Shown here in pieces: positions 8,058 through 59,846 of a stretch of DNA of 64,000 nt. Within the stretch, counting starts at the first letter, position 1. Every line of letters begins with the position of its first letter. Below the pieces are notes generated by a model, which saw only the letters and a list, made by a program, of their open reading frames with translations, was not told the DNA's origin and did no database searches. The stretch covers positions 66,844 to 130,843 of the forward strand of contig VMGB01000002.1 of the NCBI GenBank assembly GCA_007376295.1. Reading direction: 5' to 3'. The stretch comes from Parcubacteria group bacterium Gr01-1014_13. Its GTDB lineage: Bacteria; Patescibacteriota; Patescibacteriia; Magasanikbacterales; GWA2-37-8. The position numbers and the translations under genes are program-made.

Positions 8058-8131
8058 GTTGAATATTATATCATGAAGCGATTGTTGACACTAGGTAGTT
8101 CGCATGCTAGGCTGGGGAAAGTTTTGGTTCG

Positions 8132-9184
8132 TTGACAATTCACAAAGAAAAGAGAGAAAACATGAAGGCAAAACGTAAAGATTGGTATCAGGTGGTGGTT
8201 CCAGAATCATATGAACACCTGTGCCAATTAGCGGCCAAAGGCAAAGGCATGAGAAAAGATGCCTGTAGTTGTGAAGATTCTCATCTCCATCTTAGCAGGG
8301 GCGGTAAACTCGTTCTTGGATTTTGTGCTGGTAGCTTCGCTCTTTGGATACTGTCATTTGTATGCATTTTTCTTGATACCGGGCATCGTCCTTTGTTTGC
8401 TCTTTCTGCCGTTGTTCTGCTTGTTATAATTTGTATTTTGATGTTCATTCTTCTTCGTTTGTTTGATCGAGGTTGGGCGAAAGAACATCCCGACAAAGTT
8501 ATTACAGATCTAATTCCGACTTATCTTCATACCCAGATCAATTACATGAGCACTTCTTTGTTGGGCTTTGGTAGCCGCCTTGAATTGGCAGGACTAAAAG
8601 TGCGGAAAGTGGCAGCTAAAGGAGAGTATACAGAAAAATTTGTTCGGCAGTTTTCTTCCGTGCTAGGTCCAGATGAAGAGCTGCCTCCTTATTTGGCCAG
8701 GATTGCAAAAGAAGGCCAGTATCATTTATTGTTTAATGAGGTACATGATCTGTTCGAGAAGAGCAAAAATTTGGTTGTGGCTTTTTTGGAGATCAAGCGG
8801 GGGGAAGTTAGTCGGTTTCAAAAGTCTTTACGCGCCAGTGTTGAACAACTCAAAGATTATTCGTCCGCGCGGGAGCTTTGTTTAGTGCATGCCAAAGAAG
8901 TTTGTGACAGCATAAACAAGTTAAGCATAAGATTTAATCGGATCCTTGATGAAAGCGGTGTCTCTACGCTTGGTTCGGCAGAGGAGCTCTCGGAAGACGC
9001 AAGTACAAACGTAAACAACGCCCAGTACGCAGCACATAATTTGTTGCTAAAACTCACCGAAATTCTTGCTATTACCAAGCTAGAGGAGAAAAAGCCCGAA
9101 ACTCCAGTCACAGAAGGTGGTGTTTTGACCGAGGCTGATCTCAAAGAACTTGAAGAGTTGGATTTATCCAGCTTAGACAAGTAA
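8132..9184 (+). CDS. Hypothetical membrane protein
   Basis: 350-aa ORF with two N-terminal TM helices and a C-terminal coiled/acidic region. Divergent from ftsK. No family recognised. Confidence 0.4.
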   Translation: MTIHKEKRENMKAKRKDWYQVVVPESYEHLCQLAAKGKGMRKDACSCEDSHLHLSRGGKLVLGFCAGSFALWILSFVCIFLDTGHRPLFALSAVVLLVIICILMFILLRLFDRGWAKEHPDKVITDLIPTYLHTQINYMSTSLLGFGSRLELAGLKVRKVAAKGEYTEKFVRQFSSVLGPDEELPPYLARIAKEGQYHLLFNEVHDLFEKSKNLVVAFLEIKRGEVSRFQKSLRASVEQLKDYSSARELCLVHAKEVCDSINKLSIRFNRILDESGVSTLGSAEELSEDASTNVNNAQYAAHNLLLKLTEILAITKLEEKKPETPVTEGGVLTEADLKELEELDLSSLDK

Positions 9185-9208
9185 ATTAGGTAAAACAAAA
9201 AATCTTTG

Positions 9209-9240
9209 CCCTCGATAGAAATATCGAGGGTTATTTATTT
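9209..9240 (+). terminator. Rho-independent terminator after the 8132-9184 gene
   Basis: CCCTCGATA-GAAA-TATCGAGGG followed by TTATTTATTT. Confidence 0.55.
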
Positions 9241-9504
9241 AAGAAGCTTTTTCTTCATTAAGCTGCGGCAAGAGATGCATGTTTTAACTAACGGATCAAA
9301 GTTAGAAAACTTTTTCTGAACAAAAAAATGTTCGAGAAAAAAGAGAGAGATTGTTTAAAAATTTCGATCCGGTTGAGACATCAACTTTTGCGCAGCTTGA
9401 TAAAGAAAAAATATTTTTCAAAATCATTGATGATATTTTAGAAGTGAAAAAATTTATTGTCAAGAAAATGTTATGCACAGTTTTTTGTTTTTTTATTTTT
9501 GTTA

Positions 9505-9512
9505 TGTATAAT
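9505..9512 (+). promoter_or_regulatory. Putative extended -10 element (TG-TATAAT) upstream of the small-paralog array
   Basis: TGTATAAT about 20 nt upstream of the first paralog's ribosome-binding site; -35 not evident in the AT-rich context. Confidence 0.3.
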
Positions 9513-9533
9513 TAAAATGAAAGGGTGGTATAT

Positions 9534-9746
9534 ATGGATAATAATCCTTATCGCTCCGGACCAAAACCGGAGCAGATTATTAGATTTTTCAATTCTTTTA
9601 AAGATGGTGAGGGTACATGTATTGATAGTGCAAATAAATGGCTGAAAGATATGGTAGGGAAGGTAAAGGTGCTAAAGCGCGATGTTGCCAAAAATAGGGA
9701 TGGACATTACCGGGAGATTCTTATCTGGTATCTCGAGTTGGTGTAG
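9534..9746 (+). CDS. Small protein, paralog 1 of a tandem family (unknown function)
   Basis: 70 aa from the ATG at 9534 (the ORF track used a GTG at 9525). Shares N-terminal PYR[SG]GPKPEQ and C-terminal IWY motifs with the next two genes. Confidence 0.55.
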   Translation: MDNNPYRSGPKPEQIIRFFNSFKDGEGTCIDSANKWLKDMVGKVKVLKRDVAKNRDGHYREILIWYLELV

Positions 9747-9878
9747 GGGGAAGGTTAATTTTTTCAGGCCTGAAGAGCTAAAATAGCATTTCGGGCTTTT
9801 TATTTATCCATTATTGACTTCTTAGCTTATTTGTGTTATTGTATGCGGTCCTTTAACAAACAACAGGAGGCAAGGACA

Positions 9879-27201: not shown

Positions 27202-27383
27202 ATTGAGTGAAATTTAAGGTTTGTATGCATACAATTATAGCGACTTTAGTAAACATTGACAAGAACGGTTTTTTGTGGTATTGTTGGCTATTCTTTAAAC
27301 AATTTAACTTTTTAGGTGGGATTCTCACTTGTTGCCAGGCAATTTTGCTTTGGCGAGGGTGGGATCAAAAATGGAGGTTTGCG

Positions 27384-27662
27384 ATGGCGAGTTGCCCCTA
27401 TTGCAGTTATGGCGAGCCTGGGCATGATAAGGCTTGTCCGGAGTCGATGTCTGGACAGGCCAAGGTTTTGGCCCAGAAGAGCTGTCAAGCCGGGTATCGA
27501 CAAGGCCGGTCTGGCAAGCCAGAGCCGACTGATGCCAGCGCTAGCTATAGCCTCGGCTACGGCCGCGGAATCGTGGCGCTGGAGGAGGCGGAGAATGGGT
27601 ATGACCCGCGCTTCGACGACATGAGCGCTGACCCGGCGTACTACGATTCAGACGACTACTAG
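27384..27662 (+). CDS. Small Cys-containing acidic protein on a GC-rich islet (unknown function)
   Basis: ATG 6 nt after a GGAGG RBS. 92 aa: MASCPYCSYGEPGHDKACPES...DPAYYDSDDY. Local G+C is far above flanking DNA. Followed by two hairpin terminators. Confidence 0.45.
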   Translation: MASCPYCSYGEPGHDKACPESMSGQAKVLAQKSCQAGYRQGRSGKPEPTDASASYSLGYGRGIVALEEAENGYDPRFDDMSADPAYYDSDDY

Positions 27663-41120: not shown

Positions 41121-41564
41121 ATGGAGCTAACGGTAGCGGAAATTTCGGCCCCGTCGGCGCAGATCGCCAGGCAGTACGGTTGTAAGGTTGCGGACCATCA
41201 AGATGTCCAGCAGACAGTGTTCGAGGAACAGGTAGGTCTTATTGAGATAGTTTCTTTCGTGGAACCTAACGATTTCTACATCCACGGCAAGGCTATGCGT
41301 CTGCGGGCAGTCGGGCTCAGAGCAAATCTTGGATTGTTAGACGCCAAGTGTTTGCTCGATCATCAGGAAAAGATCACTGAGGATTTCCGGAAAAGGCGTC
41401 TCGTGTTCACCGGCACGCTTATGCGAGGCCCGGACAACGCTCTCAGTTTCGCGTATCTTTTCTACGACCGTAGTTGGCAGCTGAAGGTCCAGTGGCTCGA
41501 TTGGAATTGGTGCGGTAACTATTATCTGGTTCGCAACAGAAATAATTCTGTTTCTGACCGCTAA
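41121..41564 (+). CDS. Hypothetical protein, family A paralog 2 (homolog of 19355-19780)
   Basis: RBS AAGGAGG before the ATG. Higher-GC gene. Alignable blocks with the 19.3-kb paralog (ANLGLLDAKCLLDHQEKIT; LVFTGTL; FAYLFYDRSWQL). Confidence 0.55.
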   Translation: MELTVAEISAPSAQIARQYGCKVADHQDVQQTVFEEQVGLIEIVSFVEPNDFYIHGKAMRLRAVGLRANLGLLDAKCLLDHQEKITEDFRKRRLVFTGTLMRGPDNALSFAYLFYDRSWQLKVQWLDWNWCGNYYLVRNRNNSVSDR

Positions 41565-43930: not shown

Positions 43931-44938
43931 TTAATTATCCAAGTCAGCTTTGTTAGTTTTTCTTAGTATTCTCCATAAGATTCTACGATCTATCTTGAGC
44001 AGTTTTGCGGCATGGGTTTTGTTGCCATCGGTTAATTTAATGGCCTTAGCGATGAGATGCCGCTTGTATTGCGCTACCGCATCTTTTAGAGACATGCCGT
44101 CTTCAGGTATTTGCATTTGCGTAAGTTTTTCGGTCAATTTAGCTTTGGTGGATGACTCTTTGATAGACGACGGGATATCCATTACGCCGATTTCTTCGCT
44201 CATACTGAGAACCACCATTTGTTCTATGGTATTGCGTAACTCTCGGATATTGCCCGGCCAAGGGTACTCCTTAAGAATCGCAAGCGCATCGTCGCTGATG
44301 CTTTTTGTATAGCAAGCGTTTTCTGCGTTAGCCACCTGTCGGAAATGATCAGCTAAAACGGAAATATCTTCCACCCGTTCCCGCAGAGGCGGCAGGTTTA
44401 GTTCTATCGTGTTGATGCGATAGTACAAATCTTGACGGAATTTTTTTGCTGCTACCAAATGTTTGATATCAGCATTTGTGGCGGAAAGCACGCGAACATC
44501 AATTTTGATGCTTGTGTTTCCTCCCACTCGACGGACTTCTTTATTCTCAATTACTCGTAGGAGCTTTGCTTGTACAGCAGGTGATATTTCTCCAATTTCA
44601 TCGAGGAAGATCGTTCCGCCTTCAGCTTGTTCAAATACACCACGATGCTTAGAGATTGCGCTGGTAAATGAACCTTTTTCGTGGCCAAACAGTTCGCTTT
44701 CGGGGAGTGATGCGGTTAGCGCACCACAGTTAATGGGGATAAAAGGACCCTCAGAGCGTCGGCTTGCAAGATGAATCTTGCGCGCCAGAAGCTCTTTGCC
44801 AGTACCAGTTTCTCCGGTTATAAGGACAGTACATTGGCTTTTGGCTGCTCTGTCGACCTTTTCGTCAAGAGCCGCAATGGCTGGGGAAGTTCCTAGTATT
44901 TCTTTATCCATATTTCCCTCCGCCTTAAGTTTAACCAC
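43931..44938 (-). CDS. Sigma-54-activator-like AAA+ transcriptional regulator (no receiver domain; C-terminal Fis-type HTH)
   Basis: Walker A GETGTGKE, ESELFGHEKGSFTSA (GAFTGA position reads GSFTSA), Walker B IFLDEIGE, R-finger region, C-terminal HTH (THAAKLLKIDRRILWRILRK). Confidence 0.75.
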   Translation of the reverse strand: MVKLKAEGNMDKEILGTSPAIAALDEKVDRAAKSQCTVLITGETGTGKELLARKIHLASRRSEGPFIPINCGALTASLPESELFGHEKGSFTSAISKHRGVFEQAEGGTIFLDEIGEISPAVQAKLLRVIENKEVRRVGGNTSIKIDVRVLSATNADIKHLVAAKKFRQDLYYRINTIELNLPPLRERVEDISVLADHFRQVANAENACYTKSISDDALAILKEYPWPGNIRELRNTIEQMVVLSMSEEIGVMDIPSSIKESSTKAKLTEKLTQMQIPEDGMSLKDAVAQYKRHLIAKAIKLTDGNKTHAAKLLKIDRRILWRILRKTNKADLDN

Positions 44939-44943
44939 GAATT

Positions 44944-45882
44944 TTACTTTTTGTCAATCCTACAAAGAGTCTTTAAGGCGGTCAGATCAGTAGCCGAAAG
45001 TTTTTCGTTTGTACCCTGGTTAAGACGGTACATTATAGCTTTTGGATCATCTACATGTTCTAGGCCTAGCGCATGGCCAAATTCGTGGGCCAGAACGCGT
45101 ATCAATTTGTCAGTGCTATCAAATTGGTAAATATCGATTTCTTGTCCATATAGGTCGCTTTTGTATAACCCTTCTTCAAATTCATCGCCGCGCTCTTTAT
45201 TGGTTTGATTAAATTCTCCGGCATCAATATTCAAAGATTCTGCCAGACGATTCAAAACAGTGATCATGGCATTGATGTTATCTACATCGGCATTAAGACT
45301 GTCTTGCAATTGGTTTATTTGCGCTAATTCAGCGTTGAGCGCCTCTTTTTCTTCATTTAGCTCTGCATATGCTTTGGGGGTGGCGCCACCACGCTTATTC
45401 CAGTAAGTCACTTTGGCCTCATATTCATCTTTATGTTTTTCAAATATGGCAACTTGTGATTTAAATGAAGCCATTTTTTGGCTGTAGGCCAATTGCATGA
45501 CTTTGAGTTTGGACTTTAATGCGTCATAGGAGGCTCGGTCGTCATTTATAGTTAAACCAAGTTTGCGCATTTTTATTGTCGCCTCCTGACGATAATCATA
45601 AATCAAATTTATTTTTAAATTACCATCGGGTTTATTGGTAAATAATTCTTTGCCGATAGGTTTTTCCCAAACTTGTTCAGCTTTGGCCAGAGCATTTGTA
45701 AATTGGTCTTTTGATATACCAAACTTGGTATCAAAAGAGCCGAGGCTGTAGCCGATAGGTTGCGTACAGGGAAGGTAAGAGTTATATAGCTGATTCCACA
45801 AATTTAAAAGCGGGGTACGAAAAAAATAAGCTGTGGCGCCCAGGATTATAAAAGAAAGAAGTATTTTAAAGGCCTTATACAT
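44944..45882 (-). CDS. Membrane-anchored zinc metalloprotease, matrixin (M10)-like
   Basis: N-terminal TM helix, coiled-coil region, C-terminal HEFGHALGLEH zincin motif. Confidence 0.75.
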   Translation of the reverse strand: MYKAFKILLSFIILGATAYFFRTPLLNLWNQLYNSYLPCTQPIGYSLGSFDTKFGISKDQFTNALAKAEQVWEKPIGKELFTNKPDGNLKINLIYDYRQEATIKMRKLGLTINDDRASYDALKSKLKVMQLAYSQKMASFKSQVAIFEKHKDEYEAKVTYWNKRGGATPKAYAELNEEKEALNAELAQINQLQDSLNADVDNINAMITVLNRLAESLNIDAGEFNQTNKERGDEFEEGLYKSDLYGQEIDIYQFDSTDKLIRVLAHEFGHALGLEHVDDPKAIMYRLNQGTNEKLSATDLTALKTLCRIDKK

Positions 45883-45899
45883 AGCCCTTAGTTTTTAAA

Positions 45900-46022
45900 T
45901 TATTTCCTTTTTTTGGGAGCTCTTGTTTCAAGCATGCGTCTTTTAATTTCTAGTCGTTTCTTGGTTTTAGGCGAATGCTTTGATTTAGTTTTTTTACGAA
46001 GGCCGGTTCGTCTTTTTGCCAT
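45900..46022 (-). CDS. Candidate 40-aa very basic small protein (ORF below the track's 60-aa cutoff)
   Basis: MAKRRTGLRKKTKSKHSPKTKKRLEIKRRMLETRAPKKRK, immediately upstream of and co-directional with the metalloprotease gene; preceded by a hairpin terminator at 46109-46142. Confidence 0.3.
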   Translation of the reverse strand: MAKRRTGLRKKTKSKHSPKTKKRLEIKRRMLETRAPKKRK

Positions 46023-46161
46023 ATACTATGTAGTTAAGATTAAGTTAAATATATTTTATCACACATTGTTTAATCTAACCTAATATAATTTCATGAAATT
46101 ATCAAAGCCCAAACAAACAAGACGCCCGCCTCTTTTTTGGCGGGCGTCTCTGGTAGCTTAT

Positions 46162-46371
46162 TTAAAGAGTAGGAGCAGGAGAAGGTTGTGGGGTAGGGAC
46201 ATTGTTGATATCAATGGTAGTACCTTGCTCTGCTGGGGTAATCTCGCTGGTTTGCAGCATTGGTAGAGCGTAAACAAAGAAAGCGATAGCTAATCCGACC
46301 AAAATTATGATAGCCACAATCGCCACAACGTTTCCGTCATCTGTAGTTTCGTGTGCAATATTAGTTGCCAT
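46162..46371 (-). CDS. Small membrane protein
   Basis: 69 aa with one TM helix and a Pro-rich tail. Confidence 0.35.
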   Translation of the reverse strand: MATNIAHETTDDGNVVAIVAIIILVGLAIAFFVYALPMLQTSEITPAEQGTTIDINNVPTPQPSPAPTL

Positions 46372-46413
46372 ATGAATAAATATTAATCGTGAATAAATTC
46401 TATCCTTTTCAAT

Positions 46414-46566
46414 TTATAATACCGGTTTTTCACCTTTAATTATTCTTACTAGTACTATGATAATAGCAATTACCAAGAGTATATGAATGAATCCTCCCAG
46501 TGTATAAGAAGTTACTAGTCCAAGTAGCCAGAGTACGATTAAGATCACTGCAATTGTCCATAACAT
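46414..46566 (-). CDS. lmo0937-family small membrane protein (50 aa)
   Basis: MLWTIAVILIVLWLLGLVTSYTLGGFIHILLVIAIIIVLVRIIKGEKPVL matches the widespread MLWTI...GGxIHILLVIA small-protein family; missed by the ORF track. Confidence 0.6.
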   Translation of the reverse strand: MLWTIAVILIVLWLLGLVTSYTLGGFIHILLVIAIIIVLVRIIKGEKPVL

Positions 46567-46804
46567 ATGTTTTCTATTAGTAGATTAAATTCAGTACAAG
46601 CAGTTTTATTTTTTTGTTTTACTAACTAAGAAGAGATCTCTTCTTCCTCTTCGTCTTCTTCCATTGCTTCTTTGGCCGCTTCACGCCCTTTTTGTTCAGC
46701 CATCTCTTTTGTGTCTTCTGTGCCTTCATCTAAATTTTCATCATCTTGATTAGGGTCTGTTATTTTCATATAGATATTTTAAATGAATAAACTTACTTAA
46801 AAAT

Positions 46805-47149
46805 TTATCTATTTTTTTCTTTTTCCTCTTCTTTAGCGGCCAAGTATTCTCTTTCCATCTCATACCACTTGGCTTGCAATGTGGTTATAAGTTTTCTTTT
46901 AGCATCACTAGCTAATTTTTTTTGTTCAGCGTATTTGTCTACTATAGTAGTAACTAAATTATCAAAAGTTTCTTTAGTTACATCCTGTAGGTTGTTGAGT
47001 TCTTTTTTTAAGTTTTTGACGAGAGTCTTAAGATCTTTTTGTAATTCGTCGGTCAATTCTCTTCCTCCTTTCGTCATGGCAAATCCCAGTGTTGCCATAG
47101 CTGCCAGAAGTCCACCCAGTATAAGTCCTTTTTTGAATGTATTTTCCAT
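46805..47149 (-). CDS. Hypothetical exported coiled-coil protein
   Basis: 114 aa, N-terminal hydrophobic signal-like segment, rest predicted helical. Confidence 0.4.
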   Translation of the reverse strand: MENTFKKGLILGGLLAAMATLGFAMTKGGRELTDELQKDLKTLVKNLKKELNNLQDVTKETFDNLVTTIVDKYAEQKKLASDAKRKLITTLQAKWYEMEREYLAAKEEEKEKNR

Positions 47150-47267
47150 ATACAGAAGTTAATAATAAATAGCTTGTTAGGGAAGAAGTGGCAGTAAGTG
47201 TATCCCTCCTCGCATATTTATTTTCTTACATATGGTTAGGGTTAAAAATTATTAAGCAACGTTTGCT

Positions 47268-47816
47268 TTAACTTTGTTCAAGCATTCTTTTTATGGCTTC
47301 TTTTTTTTCTTCCGGAACAACATAAGGTTTCAGGCCTTGCGATGTCTGATTAAGATCAATGTATTGTAATTCGCTTCCAAGCCAGAGCTTGTATTCCCAG
47401 TTAGGAGCCAGTTCAGCAGTCGAAGAGTTTGTCTGCCAAAGTATTAATTTTGATCCGTCTAAAAAGCTAAAGATATAAATAGAGGGTCGGCCGCTAGGGT
47501 TATCTATAGTTTTTTTGCCAGCGGGAAATGTATAAATAACCCTGTTGTCTTTTATTGATTTTAATTCACCAGTGTTTATGTCGTAGTCATAATCATAGGC
47601 CATCACCGGGGTGCCTGTTTCCATATAAGCCCCAGCCGGCATAGATGCGGAGGATGGAGTGTTGAAATCGGAATTTTTTGATGGATCGTAGGAATTCTGT
47701 ATTACATAAACTGCGCCTAGAACTAATAAAGAAACACCCAACACAACAGAGGCCGACAAGAGCAGAGCGTGTTTGGTGATATGGTGCTGGTGATGTTGAG
47801 GCAAAATTAATTGCAT
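47268..47816 (-). CDS. Hypothetical membrane-anchored protein
   Basis: 182 aa with a His-rich N-terminus, one TM helix and an extracytoplasmic domain. Confidence 0.4.
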   Translation of the reverse strand: MQLILPQHHQHHITKHALLLSASVVLGVSLLVLGAVYVIQNSYDPSKNSDFNTPSSASMPAGAYMETGTPVMAYDYDYDINTGELKSIKDNRVIYTFPAGKKTIDNPSGRPSIYIFSFLDGSKLILWQTNSSTAELAPNWEYKLWLGSELQYIDLNQTSQGLKPYVVPEEKKEAIKRMLEQS

Positions 47817-47895
47817 ATGTTTATAATTACTAGGGGTGAATTAAATCAGAAACTTGTTTCTGATTTATGAGGCCTGACTTAATTTCAAGCTTCGC

Positions 47896-48225
47896 TTATT
47901 TAATTTTTTTATAGATTCCAATTGTCTTGATAACCGATTGAGCGAAAGAGCCGGTATGTTTAAGTTTGCAATAGATTCTTTTTCCGTCTCGTTCTTTGTG
48001 TACGAGATGGGTATGTTCCAAAATTTTAATATGTCGCGACATTAATGGTATGGAAATGTCTAGAATTTTCGCTAAGGTGCTAACCGAGATTTTGTGGTGC
48101 TCGGTAAGAATACGAAAGATTCTATAACGGGTAACATCACCCAGCGCTTTAAATGTCGCGGCCACGTGTTTGTCTACTTCGCTAAGCCGTTTACGGTTTC
48201 GCAGAACCTCCTTGTTGCTAAGCAT
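47896..48225 (-). CDS. ArsR/SmtB-family transcriptional regulator
   Basis: Winged HTH: LGDVTRYRIFRIL...ISVSTLAKILDISIPLMSRHIKILE. Confidence 0.8.
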   Translation of the reverse strand: MLSNKEVLRNRKRLSEVDKHVAATFKALGDVTRYRIFRILTEHHKISVSTLAKILDISIPLMSRHIKILEHTHLVHKERDGKRIYCKLKHTGSFAQSVIKTIGIYKKIK

Positions 48226-48421
48226 ATAATTGTAAGTATAGTTAGTTAATTAAATGTTTAATTGTTTAATCATTTAAGTATATACCCATCTAGAAAAATT
48301 TGTCAATAGGGCAAAGGGGGAGTAGCTACTTAAGTAAAGTGTAAGCTTGACAAATTAATTATGTTAGGAATAGTATATGTTAAACAGTTAAACAAATATT
48401 AAATTAACATCATAACTCCTT

Positions 48422-49084
48422 ATGAAAATACTTGTTGTTGAGGATGAAAAAAAATTAAATAAAGGACTGGTAGAAGGTTTGCAAAAACAAGGTTATGCGG
48501 TCGATTTTGCGTTTGACGGTGAAGAAGGGGAAAGGTTGGCGCTGTGGAATGAGTACGATTTTATTGTTTTAGATATCATGCTGCCCAAGAAAGATGGGCT
48601 AGAGGTGTGTAGTAACTTACGCAATAAGGGAAAAACAACCCCGATTTTGTTTTTAACGGCTAAAGATACGACAGAAGATACGGTAAATGGTTTAAATCAT
48701 GGAGCAGACGATTATCTAATTAAGCCTTTTTCTTTTGAAGAATTAACCGCGCGTATTCGCGCGTTGTTGCGCCGACCCCCACTTTTGGTAAGTGATTTGT
48801 TAGAGGTAGATGGTTTGCGCCTGGATACTCGTTCTCAAGTGCTTACTGCTAATAATCAAGTAGTAGAACTAACGCTGCATGAATATGGCCTTTTGGAATA
48901 TTTGTTACGTAATAAGGGGGCGGTAAAAACTCGTGATGAAATTTTGGAGCATGTATGGGACCGTTTCTTTGATTCATTTAGCAATGTGGTTGATGTGCAT
49001 GTAAAAAATTTACGTAAAAAATTGCCTAAGGTATATGCAAAACGTATTCAAACAGTTTGGGGAAAGGGCTATAGGCTCGTTTAA
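48422..49084 (+). CDS. OmpR-family two-component response regulator
   Basis: Receiver domain (ILVVEDE...DFIVLDIMLP) plus winged-helix output domain (...VWGKGYRLV). Confidence 0.9.
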   Translation: MKILVVEDEKKLNKGLVEGLQKQGYAVDFAFDGEEGERLALWNEYDFIVLDIMLPKKDGLEVCSNLRNKGKTTPILFLTAKDTTEDTVNGLNHGADDYLIKPFSFEELTARIRALLRRPPLLVSDLLEVDGLRLDTRSQVLTANNQVVELTLHEYGLLEYLLRNKGAVKTRDEILEHVWDRFFDSFSNVVDVHVKNLRKKLPKVYAKRIQTVWGKGYRLV

Positions 49085-50072
49085 CTCCAGATTTAAATTT
49101 TCTTTGTGGGAGTTAACTGCTTTATACGCGGCCATATTAATAGTCATTCTTTTTTTATCTAGCAGTATCATTTACGGTGCCTTTTCTAACCGATTAGAGT
49201 ATAGGTTTAATCAGGCGACTTCGCCTTCCTTTTCAAATTTTCTTCCGTTTCCTCCAACGGTTCAAGATGTACAGGGTGATTTGGTTAGGTCGCTAGTGTG
49301 GGTAAATATTATTCTGCTCGTTGCGGCTGGTGTGGCTAGTTACTGGTTGGCTAGAGCAACATTTAAGCCGCTACAGGAGATGCATGAAGGGCAAAGAAAG
49401 TTTTTTGGGGATGCGTCACACGAATTGCGCACACCTCTTAGTATATTGCGTCTTGATTTAGAAAATCAGTTAGCTGATAAAACTTTAAGCGCCCCCATAC
49501 GTGAACGTATTGTCAGTAATCTGGAAGAGGTAGACCGTATGGGGAAATTAGTAAATGGCTTGCTTGCGCTGGCTCGATTTGATGAGCTGTATAGTGCAAA
49601 ACAGAAAAATTTTATTCCAGTCAGCCTAATACCTCTTACACAGCACGCCGTAGAGCGTCTGCAGGTGCTAGCAAAAGAACAGCAAGTAGATTTAGTTTTT
49701 AATTTGCTTACCAAAGAAAAATTAATAATTTTATCTAACGAAGAAGTATTGCTGCAAACTATTACGAATATAATTAAAAATGGCATTATGTATAACCGAC
49801 CTGGCGGAAAAGTGATTGTTACTATACATAACGACAAGCGTCACGCGTTTATTACCATTGTTGATACGGGTGTAGGTATATCTAAACAGGACTTGGACAA
49901 AATATTTGACAGATTTTATCGGGCGGACAAAAGCCGCTCCAGTGAAACAGGGGGTAGCGGTTTAGGTCTTGCTATTGTCCGGTCTTCTATGAATTATTTG
50001 GATGGTACCGTAAAAATTGAAAGTGAAGTTGAGAAAGGTACGAGTATAGTCCTGGAATTTTCTTTGAAATAA
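49035..50072 (+). CDS. Two-component sensor histidine kinase
   Basis: Two TM helices, H-box ASHELRTPLS, HATPase_c N/G boxes (GGSGLGLAIV). Overlaps the regulator gene by 50 nt, so the true start may be further downstream. Confidence 0.85.
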   Translation: MQNVFKQFGERAIGSFNSRFKFSLWELTALYAAILIVILFLSSSIIYGAFSNRLEYRFNQATSPSFSNFLPFPPTVQDVQGDLVRSLVWVNIILLVAAGVASYWLARATFKPLQEMHEGQRKFFGDASHELRTPLSILRLDLENQLADKTLSAPIRERIVSNLEEVDRMGKLVNGLLALARFDELYSAKQKNFIPVSLIPLTQHAVERLQVLAKEQQVDLVFNLLTKEKLIILSNEEVLLQTITNIIKNGIMYNRPGGKVIVTIHNDKRHAFITIVDTGVGISKQDLDKIFDRFYRADKSRSSETGGSGLGLAIVRSSMNYLDGTVKIESEVEKGTSIVLEFSLK

Positions 50073-50628
50073 TCTTCATAATTTCTTCACCGTGCTTCTG
50101 TTAACATAAAACTACGATCATCAGAGTTTTGTCGTTGCATACGAGGAACGCGGAACGGTAATATGCCTCAAAAAGTTTCTCAGGAAAATATTTCCAGGAG
50201 CTTCATATCCGTTCACAGAACCTGTGGTCAACGATGGAAAAATATAAGGCATCGGCTGGAGTTACTCTGGCCTCTACTGTTCTAGCTTATCGGTTAACAA
50301 CAACAAGCTTGGTCCGTAAGTTAGAACGACTGTAACGATGCCATCTATATTTTCCATATCGTACTTACTTTTAATATTAGCAATATGTAAAAATGTCATA
50401 AAAATTTATGGACTCGTTGAAGAAGTGCGTAAGTGAAAATGATATTTTGTGCAGTTTTTGTTCTTTAGCTCTTTAAAGGCGATCCAGACAGGAAAAAGAG
50501 GAGATTTGTGGTTATGAGGCAAAGCTGCCTGGATTCATCGGTTTAAGATGGAAATAAAAGCTGTAGTTCTTTCGCCGGGACTATGAATAGCTAATTCATT
50601 TTAAACCCACAATTCAAAAATAATTTAA

Positions 50629-50659
50629 GACCGGCCTGGAGCCGGTTTTAAATTTTGCT
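50629..50659 (+). terminator. Strong rho-independent terminator within a 600-bp ORF-free region
   Basis: GACCGGC-CTGGA-GCCGGTT followed by TTAAATTTT. Confidence 0.6.
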
Positions 50660-50704
50660 CGAAAAAATTAAACCCCGCAGTGTGAGTGCGAGGTGGCGTT
50701 GGGC

Positions 50705-51079
50705 TTAGTCTTTAGGTTGATCTGGTTTTTGATCTTGGATCAACATTACGTCACGACCATCCGGGTCGGTGATGTATACATGAACAAAATTTTTAGCTTC
50801 CTTTACTTCTGTCTTTGGCTCAATACCAAAATCCCTGGCCATTGCCAGTGCTTTGGGGATTGAATCCACATAAAGCATAATGGCATCTTTGGCATATTGG
50901 CTCGATAAGTTATAGAGCTCAACCACCAGTTCAGTTTCTTTGTCAGCGAGCGGCTCTAGTTGAAAGTGCAGAGGTCCGCCATGTTCATGTTTGACTGCGT
51001 TCAGGCCTAATTTTGTATAGAAATCCGCGGTAATTTTTTTGTCCGCGCAACGAAGGACAAATCCGGCGATTTTTGCCAT
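50705..51079 (-). CDS. VOC-family (glyoxalase/bleomycin-resistance-like) protein
   Basis: 124 aa with a beta-alpha-beta-beta-beta pattern and His/Glu ligand positions typical of glyoxalase-like folds. Confidence 0.55.
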   Translation of the reverse strand: MAKIAGFVLRCADKKITADFYTKLGLNAVKHEHGGPLHFQLEPLADKETELVVELYNLSSQYAKDAIMLYVDSIPKALAMARDFGIEPKTEVKEAKNFVHVYITDPDGRDVMLIQDQKPDQPKD

Positions 51080-51081
51080 CG

Positions 51082-51456
51082 CTACACCACCTTTTGTTTG
51101 CAGTGTGAGCAGATTCTTTTATTTACCGAACAGTTGTAGCAAAGTTTACAAGGCGCTTTGTGCGTTTGGCAACCCTCGCAAACATGCCAGTTATCAGAGT
51201 GTTCTTCTTTGCGGCAACAATCTGCTGTATGGCCATTTTTGTCCATGATATGTTTTTCCAGAGAAGGACCGTCTGGATCCATATCTACCGCTATATCTAT
51301 TTTGCAATTAGGACAGTGGAATATGACAACTCTAAATTCATGTTCTGGGAATTTATCATATAAGTCGGGGTGTTCCCATTGTTCATCGTCTTTTAGAGGT
51401 GGTACAAATGGGCTGTCTTTTGTGCAAATTTTCTTGATTGATTGTTTGTTACCCAT
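51082..51456 (-). CDS. Cys-rich small protein (12 Cys in CxxC-type pairs), unknown function
   Basis: CPNC, CC, CEGC, CKLC, CSHC pairs suggest multiple Zn-ribbon/knuckle sites. N-terminus reads MGNKQS. Confidence 0.45.
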   Translation of the reverse strand: MGNKQSIKKICTKDSPFVPPLKDDEQWEHPDLYDKFPEHEFRVVIFHCPNCKIDIAVDMDPDGPSLEKHIMDKNGHTADCCRKEEHSDNWHVCEGCQTHKAPCKLCYNCSVNKRICSHCKQKVV

Positions 51457-51558
51457 TGTTTTCCTCCTACAGGAAATGGCTAAAAAATAATACCACTAAA
51501 GGGGTATTATTACAAAAATTTTTGGTTCCCGGGTCTGGATTCATAAGGGGGCTCAAAC

Positions 51559-52599
51559 TTAACTGCCGGTGAATTTTAAACCGCTGATTGAAACGTCGTC
51601 ACATCCGCAGGTTGAATCTACACAGGTTGCGATTAAACTTTCAACCTCTGCGGACACAAAGGTCTGCGCTGTTGCCATAGAACCGGGCCCCTTTGCCTTT
51701 ACCTTGACGGCGGATACGGAATCGATGATAATTTTGAAAAAATCTTGATTGCAAGTAAACCCTTTTCTTTTTGGTTCGGTGTCAAAACTCGCGTGTTCTG
51801 CCTCCACGATTTTGATACTGGGAAGCGATATATCGGGAATTTTTAAATTCGGATCTAATTGTTTAACTTTATTGATGATACCGCCCATCTGCTGGAGCCA
51901 GCTTAAAATCTCTTCATCTTTTACGCCAGCCCCTACGCTAGTCCCTACTTCATATTCATAGCCGCAATCTTTGGGGAGAAATTCATGTCTCAAGCCGGCG
52001 GATGCGACCGCTTCTGGATTTCGTCCAAACGGCAGTTTTTTTGAGAGCGGGAAAAACCACCGCGAGTTTCGGAGTCGCGTTTTTGCCTCGCCCCAGGCGC
52101 GCAAAACTACCCAGCCATTAACATGCGGCCTGCATTCACAACCGGACGGACGGTGGAATTTTCCATCAATAATTAAAGTCCCATCAACTTTGGATTTCGC
52201 CTCAACCGTTCCGGAAAGTTTTCGCGACCATACTCTTGCTTTTCCTCTAACGGTATTAATCCCCGGGCCGTAAGATTCAAGTTGGGCTTCGGCATACCCC
52301 GCGTTCCAGTTGTTTACTTTTCCATCCGTATTGGGATCCGTGCGAGGCGGGGAAAATTGCACTGTAACCTCCCAACCGCAACGACCTTCGTGCGGAAGCT
52401 TTCGGTAAGCAATGAGTTCCGGTCGATCTTCCGATGTGATTCTTTTAAAATCTCGTCCCAATACATAGCGAAGAAACGGGGAACGCGTCCGCACTCTTCT
52501 TCTAACAACAGCGGCGATGATAATAAATACTACAATGGCCACAACTATCACCACCACACTATTTGTGGCATATGTTGGCGTCGAAACGAAATCCTCCAT
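51559..52599 (-). CDS. Hypothetical membrane-anchored protein (346 aa)
   Basis: N-terminal TM helix followed by an RRRVR stop-transfer sequence, then a large Cys-containing extracytoplasmic domain; elevated G+C. Confidence 0.45.
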   Translation of the reverse strand: MEDFVSTPTYATNSVVVIVVAIVVFIIIAAVVRRRVRTRSPFLRYVLGRDFKRITSEDRPELIAYRKLPHEGRCGWEVTVQFSPPRTDPNTDGKVNNWNAGYAEAQLESYGPGINTVRGKARVWSRKLSGTVEAKSKVDGTLIIDGKFHRPSGCECRPHVNGWVVLRAWGEAKTRLRNSRWFFPLSKKLPFGRNPEAVASAGLRHEFLPKDCGYEYEVGTSVGAGVKDEEILSWLQQMGGIINKVKQLDPNLKIPDISLPSIKIVEAEHASFDTEPKRKGFTCNQDFFKIIIDSVSAVKVKAKGPGSMATAQTFVSAEVESLIATCVDSTCGCDDVSISGLKFTGS

Positions 52600-52687
52600 A
52601 CTATTTAATAGTAGGTTAATTAGCTATTTTATTATATCACAACTGGTAACAAACAAAAAACGTCGTTTTTGGCGACGTTATTCGAAC

Positions 52688-52762
52688 TGGCTCCCAGGCC
52701 TGGACTCGAACCAGGGAAATCCACGTTAACAGCGTGGCGTTGTACCGCTCAACTACCTGGGA
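52688..52762 (-). tRNA. tRNA-Asn (anticodon GTT), CCA encoded
   Basis: Reverse complement TCCCAGGTAGTTGAGCGGTACAAC G CCACG CTGTTAA CGTGG ATTTC CCTGG TTCGAGT CCAGG CCTGGGA G CCA. Confidence 0.85.
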
Positions 52763-52897
52763 ATAATATTTGTTCAAGTAAATTTAAGAATATAATAATT
52801 TTTGACCAATGTCAATCAAATATTAAGAGCTTGAAACATATCCGGCTTCATGCTACGCTTTTTCTGGCTCTAAACCCTACCAAAGGAGGGTAAAGAA

Positions 52898-53197
52898 TTG
52901 GCGAAAAGGCCTGAAAAAGCGCTGGACGAGTCCATGCAACAAGTAATGGCTGAAGTCGAGCGGAAGGTCAACGACAAGTTGATGGATCCGCACCAAAGGG
53001 GTGATGAAGAGGAAAAGCCGGTCCCTTTTGAATGCCCGATGCCATGGTGCGGCAATAGTGAGTATATCAAACTCACCCAATCCAACGGCGTTCGTGGTCC
53101 CAATGGCGGCAGCACTATCATTGGTTATGAGTGTTGTGGGTGTTCTGTAAGATTTGGCGATCCTGCCAAATTTTCCAATATAAAAGGCGGGGGCTAA
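52898..53197 (+). CDS. Cys-rich small protein (99 aa), TTG start
   Basis: Strong RBS AAGGAGGG 7 nt before the TTG. Motifs CPMPWCGN...YECCGCS. Confidence 0.45.
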   Translation: MAKRPEKALDESMQQVMAEVERKVNDKLMDPHQRGDEEEKPVPFECPMPWCGNSEYIKLTQSNGVRGPNGGSTIIGYECCGCSVRFGDPAKFSNIKGGG

Positions 53198-53346
53198 TGG
53201 ATGACATTCTCCTGTGTATCTTTGTTGCTATAGTACTAGTCGCAGCAACGAGGCATGTGTTCTATATCATTTATAGCCAACGCCGTGAACGTGACTTTGT
53301 CAGAGACATAACGATGGCCAGTAAAAAGAAAGACAAAGCTCTTTAA
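53197..53346 (+). CDS. Small membrane protein (49 aa), translationally coupled to the preceding gene
   Basis: TAATG stop/start overlap: MDDILLCIFVAIVLVAATRHVFYIIYSQRRERDF... Confidence 0.35.
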   Translation: MDDILLCIFVAIVLVAATRHVFYIIYSQRRERDFVRDITMASKKKDKAL

Positions 53347-53443
53347 TTGTCGGGCGAGGTGTACATATATAATATGGCCTCGCTTTTTTAAATAAATAAG
53401 CAACCCATTGTAGGGGTTGCTTTGAAAAAAGATCGGAGTGCTT

Positions 53444-53779
53444 TTACCAAAACCAGTGCCAAAATTGCCACCAGGGATAAGTTTGTTTTTTCTTACCCCA
53501 TTCTTCGGGGATGCCTTTTATGACAACCCCACTGCCTTTTTCGGAAGCATCATGGAATTCTTGGGATGTGGCCCTTTTTTTCGGTATATCTTTTTTATCG
53601 GCACACTCCCGGCAGTGACCATAAAACAATTCATAGTCGGCCTTGGCGCAATACCGGCATTTTAATCTGGGCGGGGCTCCGAATAGCCCTCCCATGTCAG
53701 CGAGATAAATAGGGTGTTTTTCCCATTCAGCCTTGAGCGGCTCTTTCGGATCTTCTCGAAATGGACCGTCTTTTCCCAT
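53444..53779 (-). CDS. Cys/Trp-rich small protein (111 aa), unknown function
   Basis: CRYC...C..C cluster and C-terminal WWQFWHWFW. Confidence 0.4.
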   Translation of the reverse strand: MGKDGPFREDPKEPLKAEWEKHPIYLADMGGLFGAPPRLKCRYCAKADYELFYGHCRECADKKDIPKKRATSQEFHDASEKGSGVVIKGIPEEWGKKKQTYPWWQFWHWFW

Positions 53780-53863
53780 AAGACCACCTCCTCAAGATTT
53801 GGATTTTATTGTAAAAATAGAAAAAAGTCAAGCATAAACAGCTGTTGCCAACGAAATTAACGC

Positions 53864-57095: not shown

Positions 57096-59846
57096 ATGTC
57101 GAACAAGAAGTTGACTCCTGAAGAGGAGTTGCGTGATCTCTGTGATATTTCTGTCGTGGATGCCGTTGCTTATATCGGCGAATTGTCCCCGGGTACGGAA
57201 TATTTCGAACCCGATGTGGCAGATACGCTAATCAAGTTTCTTCAGCAGACGCCGGATCTTACCGGTGTGCTCCTGGACGGCCTGACCAGTGTGCATCGCC
57301 CGGGTATCCTTTCTGATGAGGTTGTGTTTTACAACCGTACGGAAAAAGAACTGTTGGCCCACCTGAAAAAGGTTGAGCGGCACGAGCATGTTCACTGGAT
57401 GTTCAACGAATTGATGAAGATGGAAGATGAGTGGTTGGGCAAGCTCCGTGCGGCGCTTCCTGAAACCAGAATTCCTGAATCAAACTTTGTTTATTCCATT
57501 GACGGCGCTGATTTTCATGGCATGTCCGAACGCATGCTGCGGGTCATTGTCCAGTCCGGCAAAGTCAAGGTGGCGCAGTCCAAGAAAGCCTTGGAAAAGA
57601 GCAGTAGAGATTTGCAACGCAAGCTTGATGGTGTGGGTACTCTCAAAGAGAGCGATCTGCAAGCCAGACTCGGTGAATTGGAAGAGAAGCGTCGCAAGCA
57701 GGTAAAGGATCGCGCGCAAAAGCGTGTGGCCGAAACCGACAAGCAGATTGCAGAAGTCAAAAACGATATCGCTAACCTGAAAAGGTATAGGGAGCTCGAG
57801 GCTTTGCGCAAAGCTTGGAAGGATAAAGATAAAACGGATGATATCGAAAAAAGTGACGAAGAATGGTTCGAGGTAAAGAGCGCTGTTGATATTAAACAGC
57901 AGGGTCTGGTAAAGACCCTGGTTACTTTGACTGCTGAGCGGGCTGCTTTAAATAAAGTTGCCCGCAAGAAAACGGCGCGAGAGACTCTCGATGCCAAGAT
58001 TAAGAAGCTCAAAGAAGAGATCGCCGTTATCGAGGAACAAGTTAAAAACATCGCTGATGATATTGCGGGTCTTGAAGACGAATTCAAGGATTTGCGCGAA
58101 CCAGAAACCAGCGGTGTGTATCATCGTCGTGTCGATGATCACGTGAACCAGTTGTATAAGCGGTTTCAAGAGCTTGGCGAAAAGCACGGTATTCGTATTG
58201 TGACCAAGCGCGGTGTGCTGGCCTTTGGCACACTTGGGATTGATTATGCTTATAACCGCGGACGCACTTTTTTGCCCATGCGGCGTGTGCGTCGGTTGGC
58301 AGAAGAGCATCACGGAATCATGACTGATTACCGTGAAAATATCGCGACTGTTTTGGAAGAATTGAAAGCTTCAGTCAACGATATTGATGTGGTATTGGAA
58401 GGCGGTACTCATGGAGAGTTCTTTGCCCGGTGGCAGAGGCTCCACATTACTACCGAAGAAATTCGCATGCAGCATGTGAACACTTTTTATACTGGCAACA
58501 GTGATGGAGTGAAGCACGTGCTTTTCCTTGCGGGTATGCCTTTTGAACCACAGCATAAAATTGCTAAATACTTGAAGACGGAGAAACCGAGTCGAACGCG
58601 CGGTGGTAAGCCTATTAACAGCGCTTCCCACCATTCATTTATTCGGAACTCCAGAAGATCTGTGTCTGGTACACAGATTATGCGCAAACATCGACATGAG
58701 CTTATGTCTGTCGAAGCGATCATGTATCGGCTTTTCGAAAATAAACAGGTGCTGGAGACGTTCAAGGCAGTAATGAGCCAGGACGATTCAGACAACCACT
58801 TGAACTCGCCGGAAATGGATCCGATGGGTACGATTGGTACTTTTGCTTTGGTAAAACAGCTCATGAAGAATCCTTTGGAGCTGTACGGGCAGAAGGTGCA
58901 TGTTGGCGGCACCCTGAACTTGGGTGATTTGGCCGAAGCTAATTCTAAGGCTTGGAAAGAGGCAACAAAGTTTCGTCGTCAGTGGATGGAGCAGGCCAAG
59001 GAAATTTCCGACCGCCTCGTAGCCACAGACACGACGGACTACAATGCTGTATTGAAAACTTCTCTTTTCTTCCTTAATGATTTGATGGGAGGAGCAAACG
59101 AGAATCTGTGGCTTACCATGGAAGCCGTTAAGCTGTTCCTCAAAGAGAAATTTTTGACGATTCTTAATGAAAGCCCTGCTCGGCTTTTGGACATTTTGGC
59201 TGTGTTGCAAGGCAATCACTTTGCCAACGCGGTGCGAGACGTCACTATTACCGAGTATGGACAATTTGAGGTTTATCTCAAGACGTTAAAAGACGCGCAT
59301 AAAGATTTCCCGACGGAATGGCGTAAACCATTTCCTCTGGAGATCCAGCTTGGCGGTGAACCGCGGTATTTCCAGTCAGATGCAATAAAGCCAGAAATGG
59401 TGGTGCACTTGGGTGGTTATAGCGTTGGCCGTCAAGGAGTTATTGAAAATTATGGCGTGGGGCATAATGGTAAGCTCTTGGTGCAGAAAACGTACCGAGT
59501 CGGTCTAACTCACGAGCCCAACGCTATCCTAAATAAGGCGCGTAATCAAAACGCTGACGTCATTAAGTCTGGGCATACGCATGAGTCGTTTCTGATGATC
59601 GATCAGAGCGGCTATAACATGGGTCGGTTTATTGATCAAAAGCCGTGCACGCAGAGAGTTTCGGCAACGGAACTTTCGTATGGCGGTCTGCCGCGTACGG
59701 CCGGTGTAGACCTTTGTGTCTATTCTCAGCCGGGACGGTATTTCAAGATGACCATTCCCATGGAACACATGCGTAAAATTGGCTTGGCCCAGATGAAAGT
59801 TGAAGCCAAGGAAGCTGTCGAAAAGAAGCTTCCTAAGAAGAAGTAA
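57096..59846 (+). CDS. Large hypothetical protein (916 aa) with a central coiled-coil; compositionally foreign
   Basis: G+C and codon usage (frequent CTG, CGT, GCG, GGC) are clearly above the rest of the window. CAA-repeat leader. Coiled-coil about aa 150-330. No confidently recognised catalytic domain. Confidence 0.7.
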   Translation: MSNKKLTPEEELRDLCDISVVDAVAYIGELSPGTEYFEPDVADTLIKFLQQTPDLTGVLLDGLTSVHRPGILSDEVVFYNRTEKELLAHLKKVERHEHVHWMFNELMKMEDEWLGKLRAALPETRIPESNFVYSIDGADFHGMSERMLRVIVQSGKVKVAQSKKALEKSSRDLQRKLDGVGTLKESDLQARLGELEEKRRKQVKDRAQKRVAETDKQIAEVKNDIANLKRYRELEALRKAWKDKDKTDDIEKSDEEWFEVKSAVDIKQQGLVKTLVTLTAERAALNKVARKKTARETLDAKIKKLKEEIAVIEEQVKNIADDIAGLEDEFKDLREPETSGVYHRRVDDHVNQLYKRFQELGEKHGIRIVTKRGVLAFGTLGIDYAYNRGRTFLPMRRVRRLAEEHHGIMTDYRENIATVLEELKASVNDIDVVLEGGTHGEFFARWQRLHITTEEIRMQHVNTFYTGNSDGVKHVLFLAGMPFEPQHKIAKYLKTEKPSRTRGGKPINSASHHSFIRNSRRSVSGTQIMRKHRHELMSVEAIMYRLFENKQVLETFKAVMSQDDSDNHLNSPEMDPMGTIGTFALVKQLMKNPLELYGQKVHVGGTLNLGDLAEANSKAWKEATKFRRQWMEQAKEISDRLVATDTTDYNAVLKTSLFFLNDLMGGANENLWLTMEAVKLFLKEKFLTILNESPARLLDILAVLQGNHFANAVRDVTITEYGQFEVYLKTLKDAHKDFPTEWRKPFPLEIQLGGEPRYFQSDAIKPEMVVHLGGYSVGRQGVIENYGVGHNGKLLVQKTYRVGLTHEPNAILNKARNQNADVIKSGHTHESFLMIDQSGYNMGRFIDQKPCTQRVSATELSYGGLPRTAGVDLCVYSQPGRYFKMTIPMEHMRKIGLAQMKVEAKEAVEKKLPKKK

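Follow-up and report, generated by a model that had tools for sequence, protein, structure and literature searches.

Does a cluster of unfamiliar small genes around a tRNA-Asn gene represent a single acquired island, or the product of separate events at one site? The question is raised by a stretch of DNA of 64,000 nucleotides (nt; hereafter the window), part of a 159.6-kb contig from the groundwater metagenome-assembled genome Parcubacteria group bacterium Gr01-1014_13, a member of the Candidate Phyla Radiation (CPR). A first inspection of the letters alone (the sequence-only reading) had described the block at 51080-53800 as a GC-richer island, acquired at the tRNA gene and encoding Cys-rich small proteins and a membrane-anchored protein with a coherent function. 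Comparison with related genomes suggests a different picture. The block appears to be the core of a plasticity hotspot extending from proS to a peptidase-M10 gene, and to combine three modules, each with a history of its own. We give this reading a probability of roughly 0.55, and hold with moderate confidence that the hotspot reflects separate insertions and deletions around tRNA-Asn.

The sister genome (GCA_964360135.1, locus L003) was reached as the contig of P0003, the sole homologue of the 124-amino-acid (aa) protein of the block. The next relative (L006, 77% identical in ProRS) and more distant CPR loci came from a scan of a genome collection with ProRS. L003 is 92% identical to the window in TrpRS and 85-87% identical in ProRS; these two proteins and a DUF5671 protein, encoded outside the block, were used as flanks. 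The order of genes in the three genomes is as follows.

Window: proS, 111-aa gene, 49-aa gene, 99-aa gene, tRNA-Asn, 346-aa gene, 124-aa gene, VOC-like gene, 4.8 kb of other genes (a two-component system, a MarR-like gene and small open reading frames, ORFs), peptidase M10.
L003: proS, 110-aa gene, 50-aa gene, 122-aa gene, tRNA-Asn, 5.1 kb of other genes (a secreted protein, MFS, HTH, a DsbD-thioredoxin fusion and a thioredoxin), 127-aa gene, VOC-like gene, peptidase M10.
L006: proS, tRNA-Asn, a sigma-like gene, peptidase M10; the Cys genes are all absent.

In blastn alignments, window positions 56574-52680 correspond to L003 930-4831, positions 51519-50664 to L003 9938-10809, and positions 45847-44963 to L003 10873-11757. 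Alignment with L006 between proS and the peptidase M10 gene is limited to the tRNA and its promoter (window 52817-52690, L006 9982-9857), the proS gene of L006 starting at 9994. Insertions or deletions occur between the compared genomes at almost every junction of the interval from proS to the ribosomal protein L1 gene. The proposal that the tRNA lies beside a variable, non-core zone was thus borne out, as presence and absence differ among the window, L003 and L006. The breakpoints define three modules around the tRNA gene.

52818..53863, no strand: module A, three genes between proS and the tRNA promoter, present in L003 and absent from L006.
52787..52815, minus strand: promoter-like site of tRNA-Asn (TTGACA-17-TATTCT), conserved in L003 and L006.
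52688..52762, minus strand: tRNA-Asn (GTT), called by ARAGORN and by Rfam (RF00005, 65.3 bits), as the sequence-only reading had it.
52659..52679, minus strand: terminator-like hairpin with a T-run just past tRNA-Asn, within the strain-specific segment and not conserved in L003 or L006.
51520..52687, no strand: module B, a strain-specific segment of about 1.17 kb from the tRNA-Asn 3' end to a repeat, delimited by blastn breakpoints against L003.
50664-51519, minus strand: module C, the cys124-VOC operon, common to the window and L003 only.

Orthologous tRNA-Asn genes are found in L003, L006 and L007. Module B is unique to the genome studied here; L003 has 5.1 kb of different genes in its place, and the 346-aa gene (orf346) is missing from both L003 and L006, each of which has other content at the site. 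The segment starts no more than 8 nt from the CCA end of tRNA-Asn. A search for a partial copy of the tRNA 3' end, suggested as a check on the island proposal, was successful: the sequence GAATCCAGACCCGGGAACCA at 51523-51542 matches the tRNA-Asn 3' end (GAGTCCAGGCCTGGGAGCCA) in 16 of 20 positions, on the same strand as the tRNA and within 4 nt of the breakpoint, homology with L003 resuming at 51519, 4 nt beyond the repeat. In first-order Markov simulations, repeats with 4 or fewer mismatches in 20 were expected 0.005 times per 128 kb. A search of L003 and L006 for a comparable att-like repeat found none, and no other meaningful direct or inverted repeat was found to bound the block. Between the tRNA and the repeat lie the terminator-like hairpin of the tRNA, an extended −10-like element (TGATATAAT), the 346-aa ORF and nothing else.

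51523..51542, minus strand: degenerate direct repeat of the tRNA-Asn 3' end (16/20), an att-like distal boundary.
51559..52599, minus strand: orf346, with a transmembrane (TM) segment at residues 14-32, followed by RRRVRTR and a 310-aa domain with 8 Cys.
52631..52639, minus strand: extended −10-like element TGATATAAT, 5' of orf346, read from the sequence.

Such an arrangement is what site-specific integration into a tRNA gene classically leaves behind, and with moderate confidence we interpret module B as a probable integration scar. Insertion at the 3' end of tRNA-Asn by an integrase of the tyrosine type would have produced it, the integrase having since been lost or having acted in trans. 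No integrase or mobility gene was seen in the scanned genes of the window or in those with precomputed Pfam hits, several genes at 10.9-22.7 kb being left unscanned; module B would therefore be a decayed or trans-mobilised remnant.

Two further observations concern the tRNA itself. The 8 nt past its CCA end (GTTCGAAT; window 52680-52687, L003 4824-4831) are common to both genomes, and GTTCGAAT is also the T-loop string of the tRNA-Asn genes of the relatives; it may be the trace of an older att-type duplication, although it is too short to evaluate. In the Logan assembly of SRR8863434 the region is divided between two contigs (L091 and L002) that overlap by about 30 nt inside tRNA-Asn, at window positions ~52728-52757. 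Since the contigs break inside the gene, the assembly graph has a branch at the proposed integration site, which could be caused by strain heterogeneity or only by tRNA sequence common to other organisms.

What module B now carries would be one orphan gene for a membrane-anchored protein. No protein but orf346 itself was retrieved in a word-index search of 5.8 billion proteins or in an exhaustive phmmer search of 1.84 billion representative proteins, and there was no match in IMG/VR, INPHARED phages or PLSDB plasmids; by these searches orf346 appears to be a true, strain-unique orphan. Only its ORF length, its codon-position GC and the promoter-like element speak for its being a coding sequence. 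The ATG is not preceded by a Shine-Dalgarno sequence, and TGATATAAT has no good −35 motif, hence the lack of a call in the consensus promoter scan. The third-codon-position GC (GC3) is 0.444, compared with 0.374 +/- 0.059 (z ~1.2), and the second-position value (GC2) has z ~2.4, which is due to amino-acid composition. The sequence-only reading had placed this protein outside the cytoplasm. Its N-terminal tail is acidic and 13 aa long, with no K/R and 2 D/E before the TM segment compared to 6 K/R and no D/E after it. By the positive-inside rule, this distribution argues for the opposite orientation (N-out/C-in), with the large domain predicted to be cytoplasmic. In the AlphaFold 2 (AF2) model (pLDDT 35) the TM helix alone is confident.

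Module A lies on the other side of the tRNA.

52898..53197, plus strand: cys99, 99 aa, with an N-terminal charged region and a C-terminal 4-Cys zinc-ribbon-like domain (FECPMPWCG ... YECCGCSVRFGDPAKF).
53197..53346, plus strand: tm49, a peptide of 49 aa with one TM segment, acidic at its N-tip and basic in its C-tail.
53398..53422, minus strand: terminator-like hairpin of cysW111, from a sequence scan.
53444..53779, minus strand: cysW111, 111 aa, with a CxxC-x11-CxxC motif (C41, C44, C56, C59) and the tail YPWWQFW(H/R)WF.
53803..53831, minus strand: promoter-like site of cysW111 (TTGACT-17-TAAAAT), from a sequence scan.

In L006 proS abuts the tRNA promoter without module A, and tblastn found no copy of the module A genes in L006, L007 or L008. 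The 111-aa gene is convergent with the 99-aa/49-aa operon. Two details of this operon proposed from the sequence proved correct. The 99-aa gene has a TTG start with a strong ribosome-binding site, AAGGAGGG, 7 nt upstream; L003 has a GTG with AAGGAGTG at the aligned position, which favours the 99-aa start over the 87-aa ATG chosen by the gene caller. The 49-aa gene is coupled to it: its start and the cys99 stop share 1 nt in the window, and the overlap in L003 is 4 nt. The N-terminal region of cys99 is probably helical. The 4-Cys domain has the pattern FECPxxxCG ... YECxGCSVRFGDPxKF, and its Cys residues (C46x4C51-x27-C79/80xC82) are invariant in the orthologue, the product of the 122-aa gene of L003. 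The tm49 orthologue (50 aa, L003 4167-4319) is 54% identical, synonymous sites being saturated. For cysW111, the 110-aa protein of L003 is 75% identical; its Cys are invariant and its aromatic tail is conserved. Searches for family, viral or PDB matches to cysW111 found none, and the protein has no signal peptide or TM segment. A zinc-anti-sigma (ZAS) motif was considered for this protein and rejected by inspection, the sequence being HCxxC rather than HxxxCxxC.

Outside the sister species, two further CPR contigs (L049 and L088) encode the cys99 domain in a small ORF of its own, in unrelated contexts. Apart from the sister species, a metagenome scan with the cys99 alignment returned only a single stand-alone zinc-ribbon ORF, on another CPR contig; a hidden Markov model of the zinc-ribbon domain found no further members among all fetched loci, and the word-index search of 5.8 billion proteins found cys99 itself only. 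At L049 11717-12318 the homologue of the domain lies beside a 97-aa Cys-rich ORF (CKSC ... CDEC) among short hypothetical genes; clusters of small Cys proteins may recur in CPR genomes.

We propose that module A would have entered between proS and the tRNA-Asn promoter before the split from L003, and would since have been inherited vertically under purifying selection. It would provide two cytoplasmic proteins with one zinc-ribbon-type site each and a small membrane peptide, the 99-aa protein acting via its coupled TM partner and the 111-aa protein via its Trp-rich interfacial tail. With low confidence, the products may be viewed as forming a small complex on the cytoplasmic side of the membrane, combining a zinc ribbon with a TM peptide and a zinc ribbon with a Trp tail.

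The same pair of genes could be read as a toxin-antitoxin-like or abortive-infection module, possibly including the 111-aa gene, in which a membrane-disrupting peptide is checked by its zinc-ribbon partner. The compact, overlapping two-gene operon is kept in both genomes, the module is accessory (absent from L006) and sits in a variable region, and tm49 has one TM segment and a basic tail, as do many small membrane toxins. Against these points stand the lack of any PADLOC, Pfam, NCBIfam or PHROG match for the block proteins and the surroundings of the stand-alone homologues: the zinc-ribbon ORF of L088 has no ORF of at least 40 aa directly downstream, and the ORFs that follow the one in L049 look DUF5680-like by eye. 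On balance we consider this explanation doubtful, with a small chance of being right.

Module C begins at the other side of the repeat and ends before the 4.8-kb segment.

51487..51515, minus strand: promoter-like site of the cys124-VOC operon (TTGTAA-17-TATTAT with an upstream TG), inside the L003-aligned stretch and directly 3' of the repeat.
51082..51456, minus strand: cys124, 124 aa, with 12 Cys and 9 His (C48xxC51 ... C80C81 ... C93xxC-x6-CxxCxxC-x6-CxxC119).
50705..51079, minus strand: VOC/glyoxalase-like protein of 124 aa, the 3' partner of cys124 at a 2-nt gap, just outside the block first described.
50694-50672, minus strand: terminator-like hairpin past the VOC gene, from a sequence scan.

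The promoter-like site thus falls just outside module B and is conserved in L003. The cys124 protein has five CxxC motifs and no signal peptide, TM or hydrophobic segment. Its sole homologue among 5.8 billion proteins, P0003 (127 aa in L003), is 74-76% identical with all 12 Cys invariant; no relatedness to cysW111 could be detected. From its motifs, cys124 is a probable multi-site binder of metal (Zn or Fe-S). The AF2 model had a pLDDT of 47.5, and Foldseek of this model against the PDB gave nothing below E = 1. The partner gene aligns with Pfam Glyoxalase at E=0.0028 (18.5 bits, cut-off 20.6; protein residues 5-111 on profile positions 3-119) and with TIGR00068 at E=8.6e-4 (19.2 bits against a cut-off of 120). 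As the alignment is full length, a VOC fold is likely despite the sub-cut-off scores. The gene is kept beside cys124 in L003 (10387-10767), with 77% aa identity. We propose that the 12-Cys, 9-His protein would bind metal in the cytoplasm and, with low confidence, that it may be the metal-binding partner of its VOC enzyme. In L003, the cargo at the same tRNA-Asn includes (7597-9817) a DsbD-TM/thioredoxin fusion and a thioredoxin-like lipoprotein, divergent from the 12-Cys gene; these genes belong to the L003-specific segment and their adjacency is therefore probably coincidental.

Could the small ORFs be no genes at all? Opposite-strand ORFs of 100-110 aa are also present in the block, and none of the proteins matches a family, as would be expected of chance ORFs in a GC-richer spacer or of a region encoding RNA. 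The substitution pattern indicates otherwise. Between the window and L003 the ratio of nonsynonymous to synonymous substitutions (dN/dS) is 0.17 for the 124-aa gene, 0.19 for the VOC gene, 0.14 for the 111-aa gene and 0.20 for the 99-aa gene, at a dS of about 1; for the four shared ORFs of the block the idea is refuted. Every Cys is conserved, strong Shine-Dalgarno sites and conserved non-ATG starts are present, and Rfam sees the tRNA only. A non-coding region was rejected on the dN/dS values, and as a general account of the block we regard it as extremely improbable.

The same comparison bears on the age of the genes. The dS of the shared genes (0.76-1.2) resembles that of ProRS, TrpRS and DUF5671 (0.97-1.5), even though their products evolve faster than the housekeeping flanks (60-77% compared with 83-92% identity). 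Together with the low dN/dS, this argues that they are real, constrained genes, present before the split from L003 and then inherited vertically; by these comparisons they do not appear to be recent co-acquisitions.

An age at least equal to the split from L003 also fits differential loss, in which the arrangement would be ancestral to a small clade whose relatives deleted parts of it, the 20-nt repeat being due to chance or to a decayed second tRNA. Indels at almost all junctions from proS to L1, the lack of mobility genes found in the window and the streamlining of CPR genomes, which makes deletion expected, are all compatible with it. However, orf346 has no homologue and cys124 only one, so that old, widely lost families are unlikely; the more distant L007 and L008 also lack the genes; and the repeat, with a chance expectation of 0.005 per window, stands at the breakpoint and on the correct strand. 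For the locus as a whole we find this explanation unlikely, though worth serious consideration, and pure differential loss is a live alternative for modules A and C.

These results can be set against the proposal of one acquired island at tRNA-Asn, whose Cys-rich and membrane proteins would act jointly as secreted or redox peptides, effectors or a toxin/immunity set. Much of its descriptive basis stands. The description of the five ORFs holds (124 aa, with 12 Cys and CxxC motifs, of which there are five; 346 aa, with a single TM; 99 aa; 49 aa; 111 aa ending in WWQFWHWFW), except that of the four small proteins called Cys-rich, three are and one is not. No significant match was obtained in Pfam, NCBIfam, PHROGs, PADLOC or PDB (the last searched with single sequences and profiles), in keeping with the absence of a recognisable family. 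The GC content of 51080-53800 is indeed above average, 0.446 compared to a mean of 0.406 (sd 0.019) for 2.7-kb windows, that is, the 96th percentile, though the maximum (0.48) lies elsewhere, at 57.1-59.8 kb; the shift is real yet modest. By codon position, GC3 is 0.38-0.51 in the block genes compared with 0.374 +/- 0.059 outside, and in three of them GC2 is 0.43-0.45 compared with 0.353 +/- 0.042, so that part of the shift reflects amino-acid composition and not foreign mutational bias. Cys makes up 4.1% of the residues of the block proteins and 0.9% elsewhere in the window, a 4.6-fold enrichment. The genes are not core in all relatives, each being restricted to one or two genomes, and they do not match housekeeping zinc-ribbon families; the tRNA adjoins the block and an att-like repeat is present.

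What this proposal does not accommodate is the structure of the locus. The repeat-bounded unit of about 1.17 kb holds orf346 only, leaving all the Cys-rich small proteins outside. Joint acquisition is contradicted by the different phyletic patterns and breakpoints of the three modules and by the flank-like dS of the shared genes. A coherent function of the whole is difficult to reconcile with three separate modules, no mobility gene found in the window and at least four transcription units in both orientations, with promoter- and terminator-like sites of their own. The Cys proteins have no signal peptides, and neither a modifying enzyme nor an exporter was found, contrary to the suggestion of secreted effectors or redox peptides. 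There was no PADLOC match and no viral relative, IMG/VR scans with four queries included; the one IMG/VR match, at locus L086, is a giant-virus-like protein that shares only the N-terminal 9 residues MGNKQSIKK, and it was dismissed as a search-pattern artefact. A single island therefore seems very unlikely to us.

If not exported, what might the Cys proteins be? Neither a signal peptide nor a hydrophobic N-terminal segment is present in cys124, cys99 or cysW111, and the Cys residues are thus most simply read as ligands of metal: the three proteins are probably cytoplasmic binders of the zinc-ribbon type, although the CxxCxxC stretch of cys124 could alternatively be an Fe-S site. Two spaced and conserved Cys knuckles, as in a zinc ribbon, are found in cysW111 and cys99. 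Curated zinc-ribbon models gave nothing significant (best Pfam E 0.042 for cys124, 0.21 for cysW111, none for cys99), nor did NCBIfam CxxC_VVA0879 (E = 0.067). Disulfides are unlikely. The organism can form extracytoplasmic disulfides, judging from a VKOR gene that overlaps a DsbA-like thioredoxin gene at 1232-2414 (minus strand) of the window. Secreted or disulfide-rich peptides were rejected, as the proteins have no export signals. Precursors of ribosomally synthesized and post-translationally modified peptides were rejected as well, there being no tailoring enzymes: no radical-SAM, P450, cyclase, protease or ABC exporter gene lies within 10 kb of the block. A eukaryote-like interpretation was dropped because the myristoylation-like MGxxxS start is not kept in the orthologue. 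The low pLDDT of the orf346 and cys124 models is attributable to the scarcity of homologues, and we drew no inference on fold from them.

Several points weigh against the mosaic proposed here, or limit how far it can be taken. No integrase or other mobility gene was found among the annotated genes of the 64-kb window. The repeat is degenerate, with mismatches at 4 of 20 positions, and L003 has no comparable one, so that the scar interpretation depends on a single site. The copies of the window may all stem from one sample, leaving the arrangement without confirmation from an independent strain. With three genomes only, gain and differential loss are indistinguishable for modules A and C. The proposed metal binding and membrane association are deduced from motifs only, both structure predictions having failed (pLDDT 35 and 47.5), and the VOC assignment scores under the curated cut-offs. 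Directly shown are the breakpoints, the repeat, the phyletic distributions, purifying selection and the lack of export signals, whereas the two protein properties just named and the mechanism of integration are inferred.

Outside the modules, the neighbourhood is in keeping with a CPR origin, with short aminoacyl-tRNA synthetases, DUF5671 and DUF5670 proteins and genes for nucleotide salvage. The 4.8-kb segment at 45848-50663 is absent from L003 and L006; it carries a histidine kinase/response regulator pair, a MarR/HTH_20 regulator and six ORFs of 40-182 aa, including a DUF5670 protein. From this comparison it appears to be a second strain-specific insertion in the same hotspot, in which no repeats or mobility genes were seen. 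Between the peptidase M10 gene and rplA, an AAA+ sigma-54-activator-like gene (43931-44938, minus strand) is specific to the window; the position is occupied by a glycosyltransferase gene in L003 and a ZIP transporter gene in L006. The plastic zone therefore spans proS to rplA. The highest GC of the window (0.479, GC3 0.529) belongs to a 916-aa ORF at 57096-59846 (plus strand), which has no Pfam family and only weak coiled-coil-type matches around residues 160-340; conserved at 74% in L006 and present in L003, it looks like a clade-specific large protein. Two more composition outliers, at 27207-27662 and 41121-41564 (both plus strand; GC3 0.58 and 0.60), have no Pfam matches; the first encodes a small Cys-containing protein with the likely true start MASCPYCSYGEPGH.

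A bolder interpretation is conceivable. Module B could be a minimal, integrase-less tRNA-Asn element that is mobilised in trans and delivers single orphan membrane-protein genes between CPR strains, while the zinc-ribbon and TM micro-proteins (111, 99 and 49 aa, perhaps with the 12-Cys/VOC pair) would form an undescribed membrane-associated system, particular to this one Parcubacteria clade, for metal handling, signalling or phage exclusion. We regard this as speculative and its chances as slim. CPR genomes commonly have small hypothetical proteins of restricted lineage and indels next to tRNA genes, and the block is therefore best seen as an ordinary feature, now well resolved; a literature search on it turned up nothing relevant. 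On present evidence it reveals no new mechanism or pathway, and its value is mainly descriptive: a base-pair-resolved case of accessory-gene turnover at a tRNA-linked hotspot of an ultra-small CPR genome, with an apparent site-specific integration scar that has no remaining integrase. It also adds three tiny Cys-rich families under purifying selection, and one apparent orphan, to the uncharacterised CPR gene pool.

Among known systems, small zinc-ribbon and zinc-finger proteins, such as those of the Zn beta-ribbon clan and the CPxCG-type micro-proteins of haloarchaea, offer the nearest parallel to the Cys proteins: the block proteins are likewise short and predicted to be cytoplasmic, with two CxxC-type knuckles 10-30 residues apart and Cys residues invariant between orthologues. 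They differ in giving no significant Pfam zinc-ribbon match (best E = 0.04-0.2), in the 12 Cys of cys124 (probably several metal sites), in the Trp-rich tail of cysW111 and the coupling of cys99 to a TM peptide, and in the confinement of the families to one to four metagenomic genomes. Bacterial proteins of the zinc_ribbon_2 type combine a zinc ribbon with a TM segment. Taken together, the 99-aa and 49-aa products would have the same layout, a zinc ribbon followed by a single-pass TM, but they are encoded by separate coupled genes in both genomes and have no sequence match to that family. The partner of cys124 resembles the VOC superfamily in aligning over its full length to the Glyoxalase model and departs from it in scoring below the curated cut-offs. 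VOC enzymes are typically metal-dependent; we know of no VOC operon with a 12-Cys partner.

Islands in tRNA genes, such as the Yersinia high-pathogenicity island and islands with P4-type integrases at asn-tRNA, are bordered by short, directly repeated copies of the tRNA 3' end. Compared to these, module B is only about 1.17 kb long with one gene, an orphan, as its cargo; it has no integrase, excisionase or transfer genes, its repeat has decayed to 16/20, and its host is a CPR bacterium. The likeness lies in its position and boundaries: module B is immediately 3' of tRNA-Asn, ends distally in a direct repeat of the same orientation and is absent from close relatives; it may also deviate modestly in composition.

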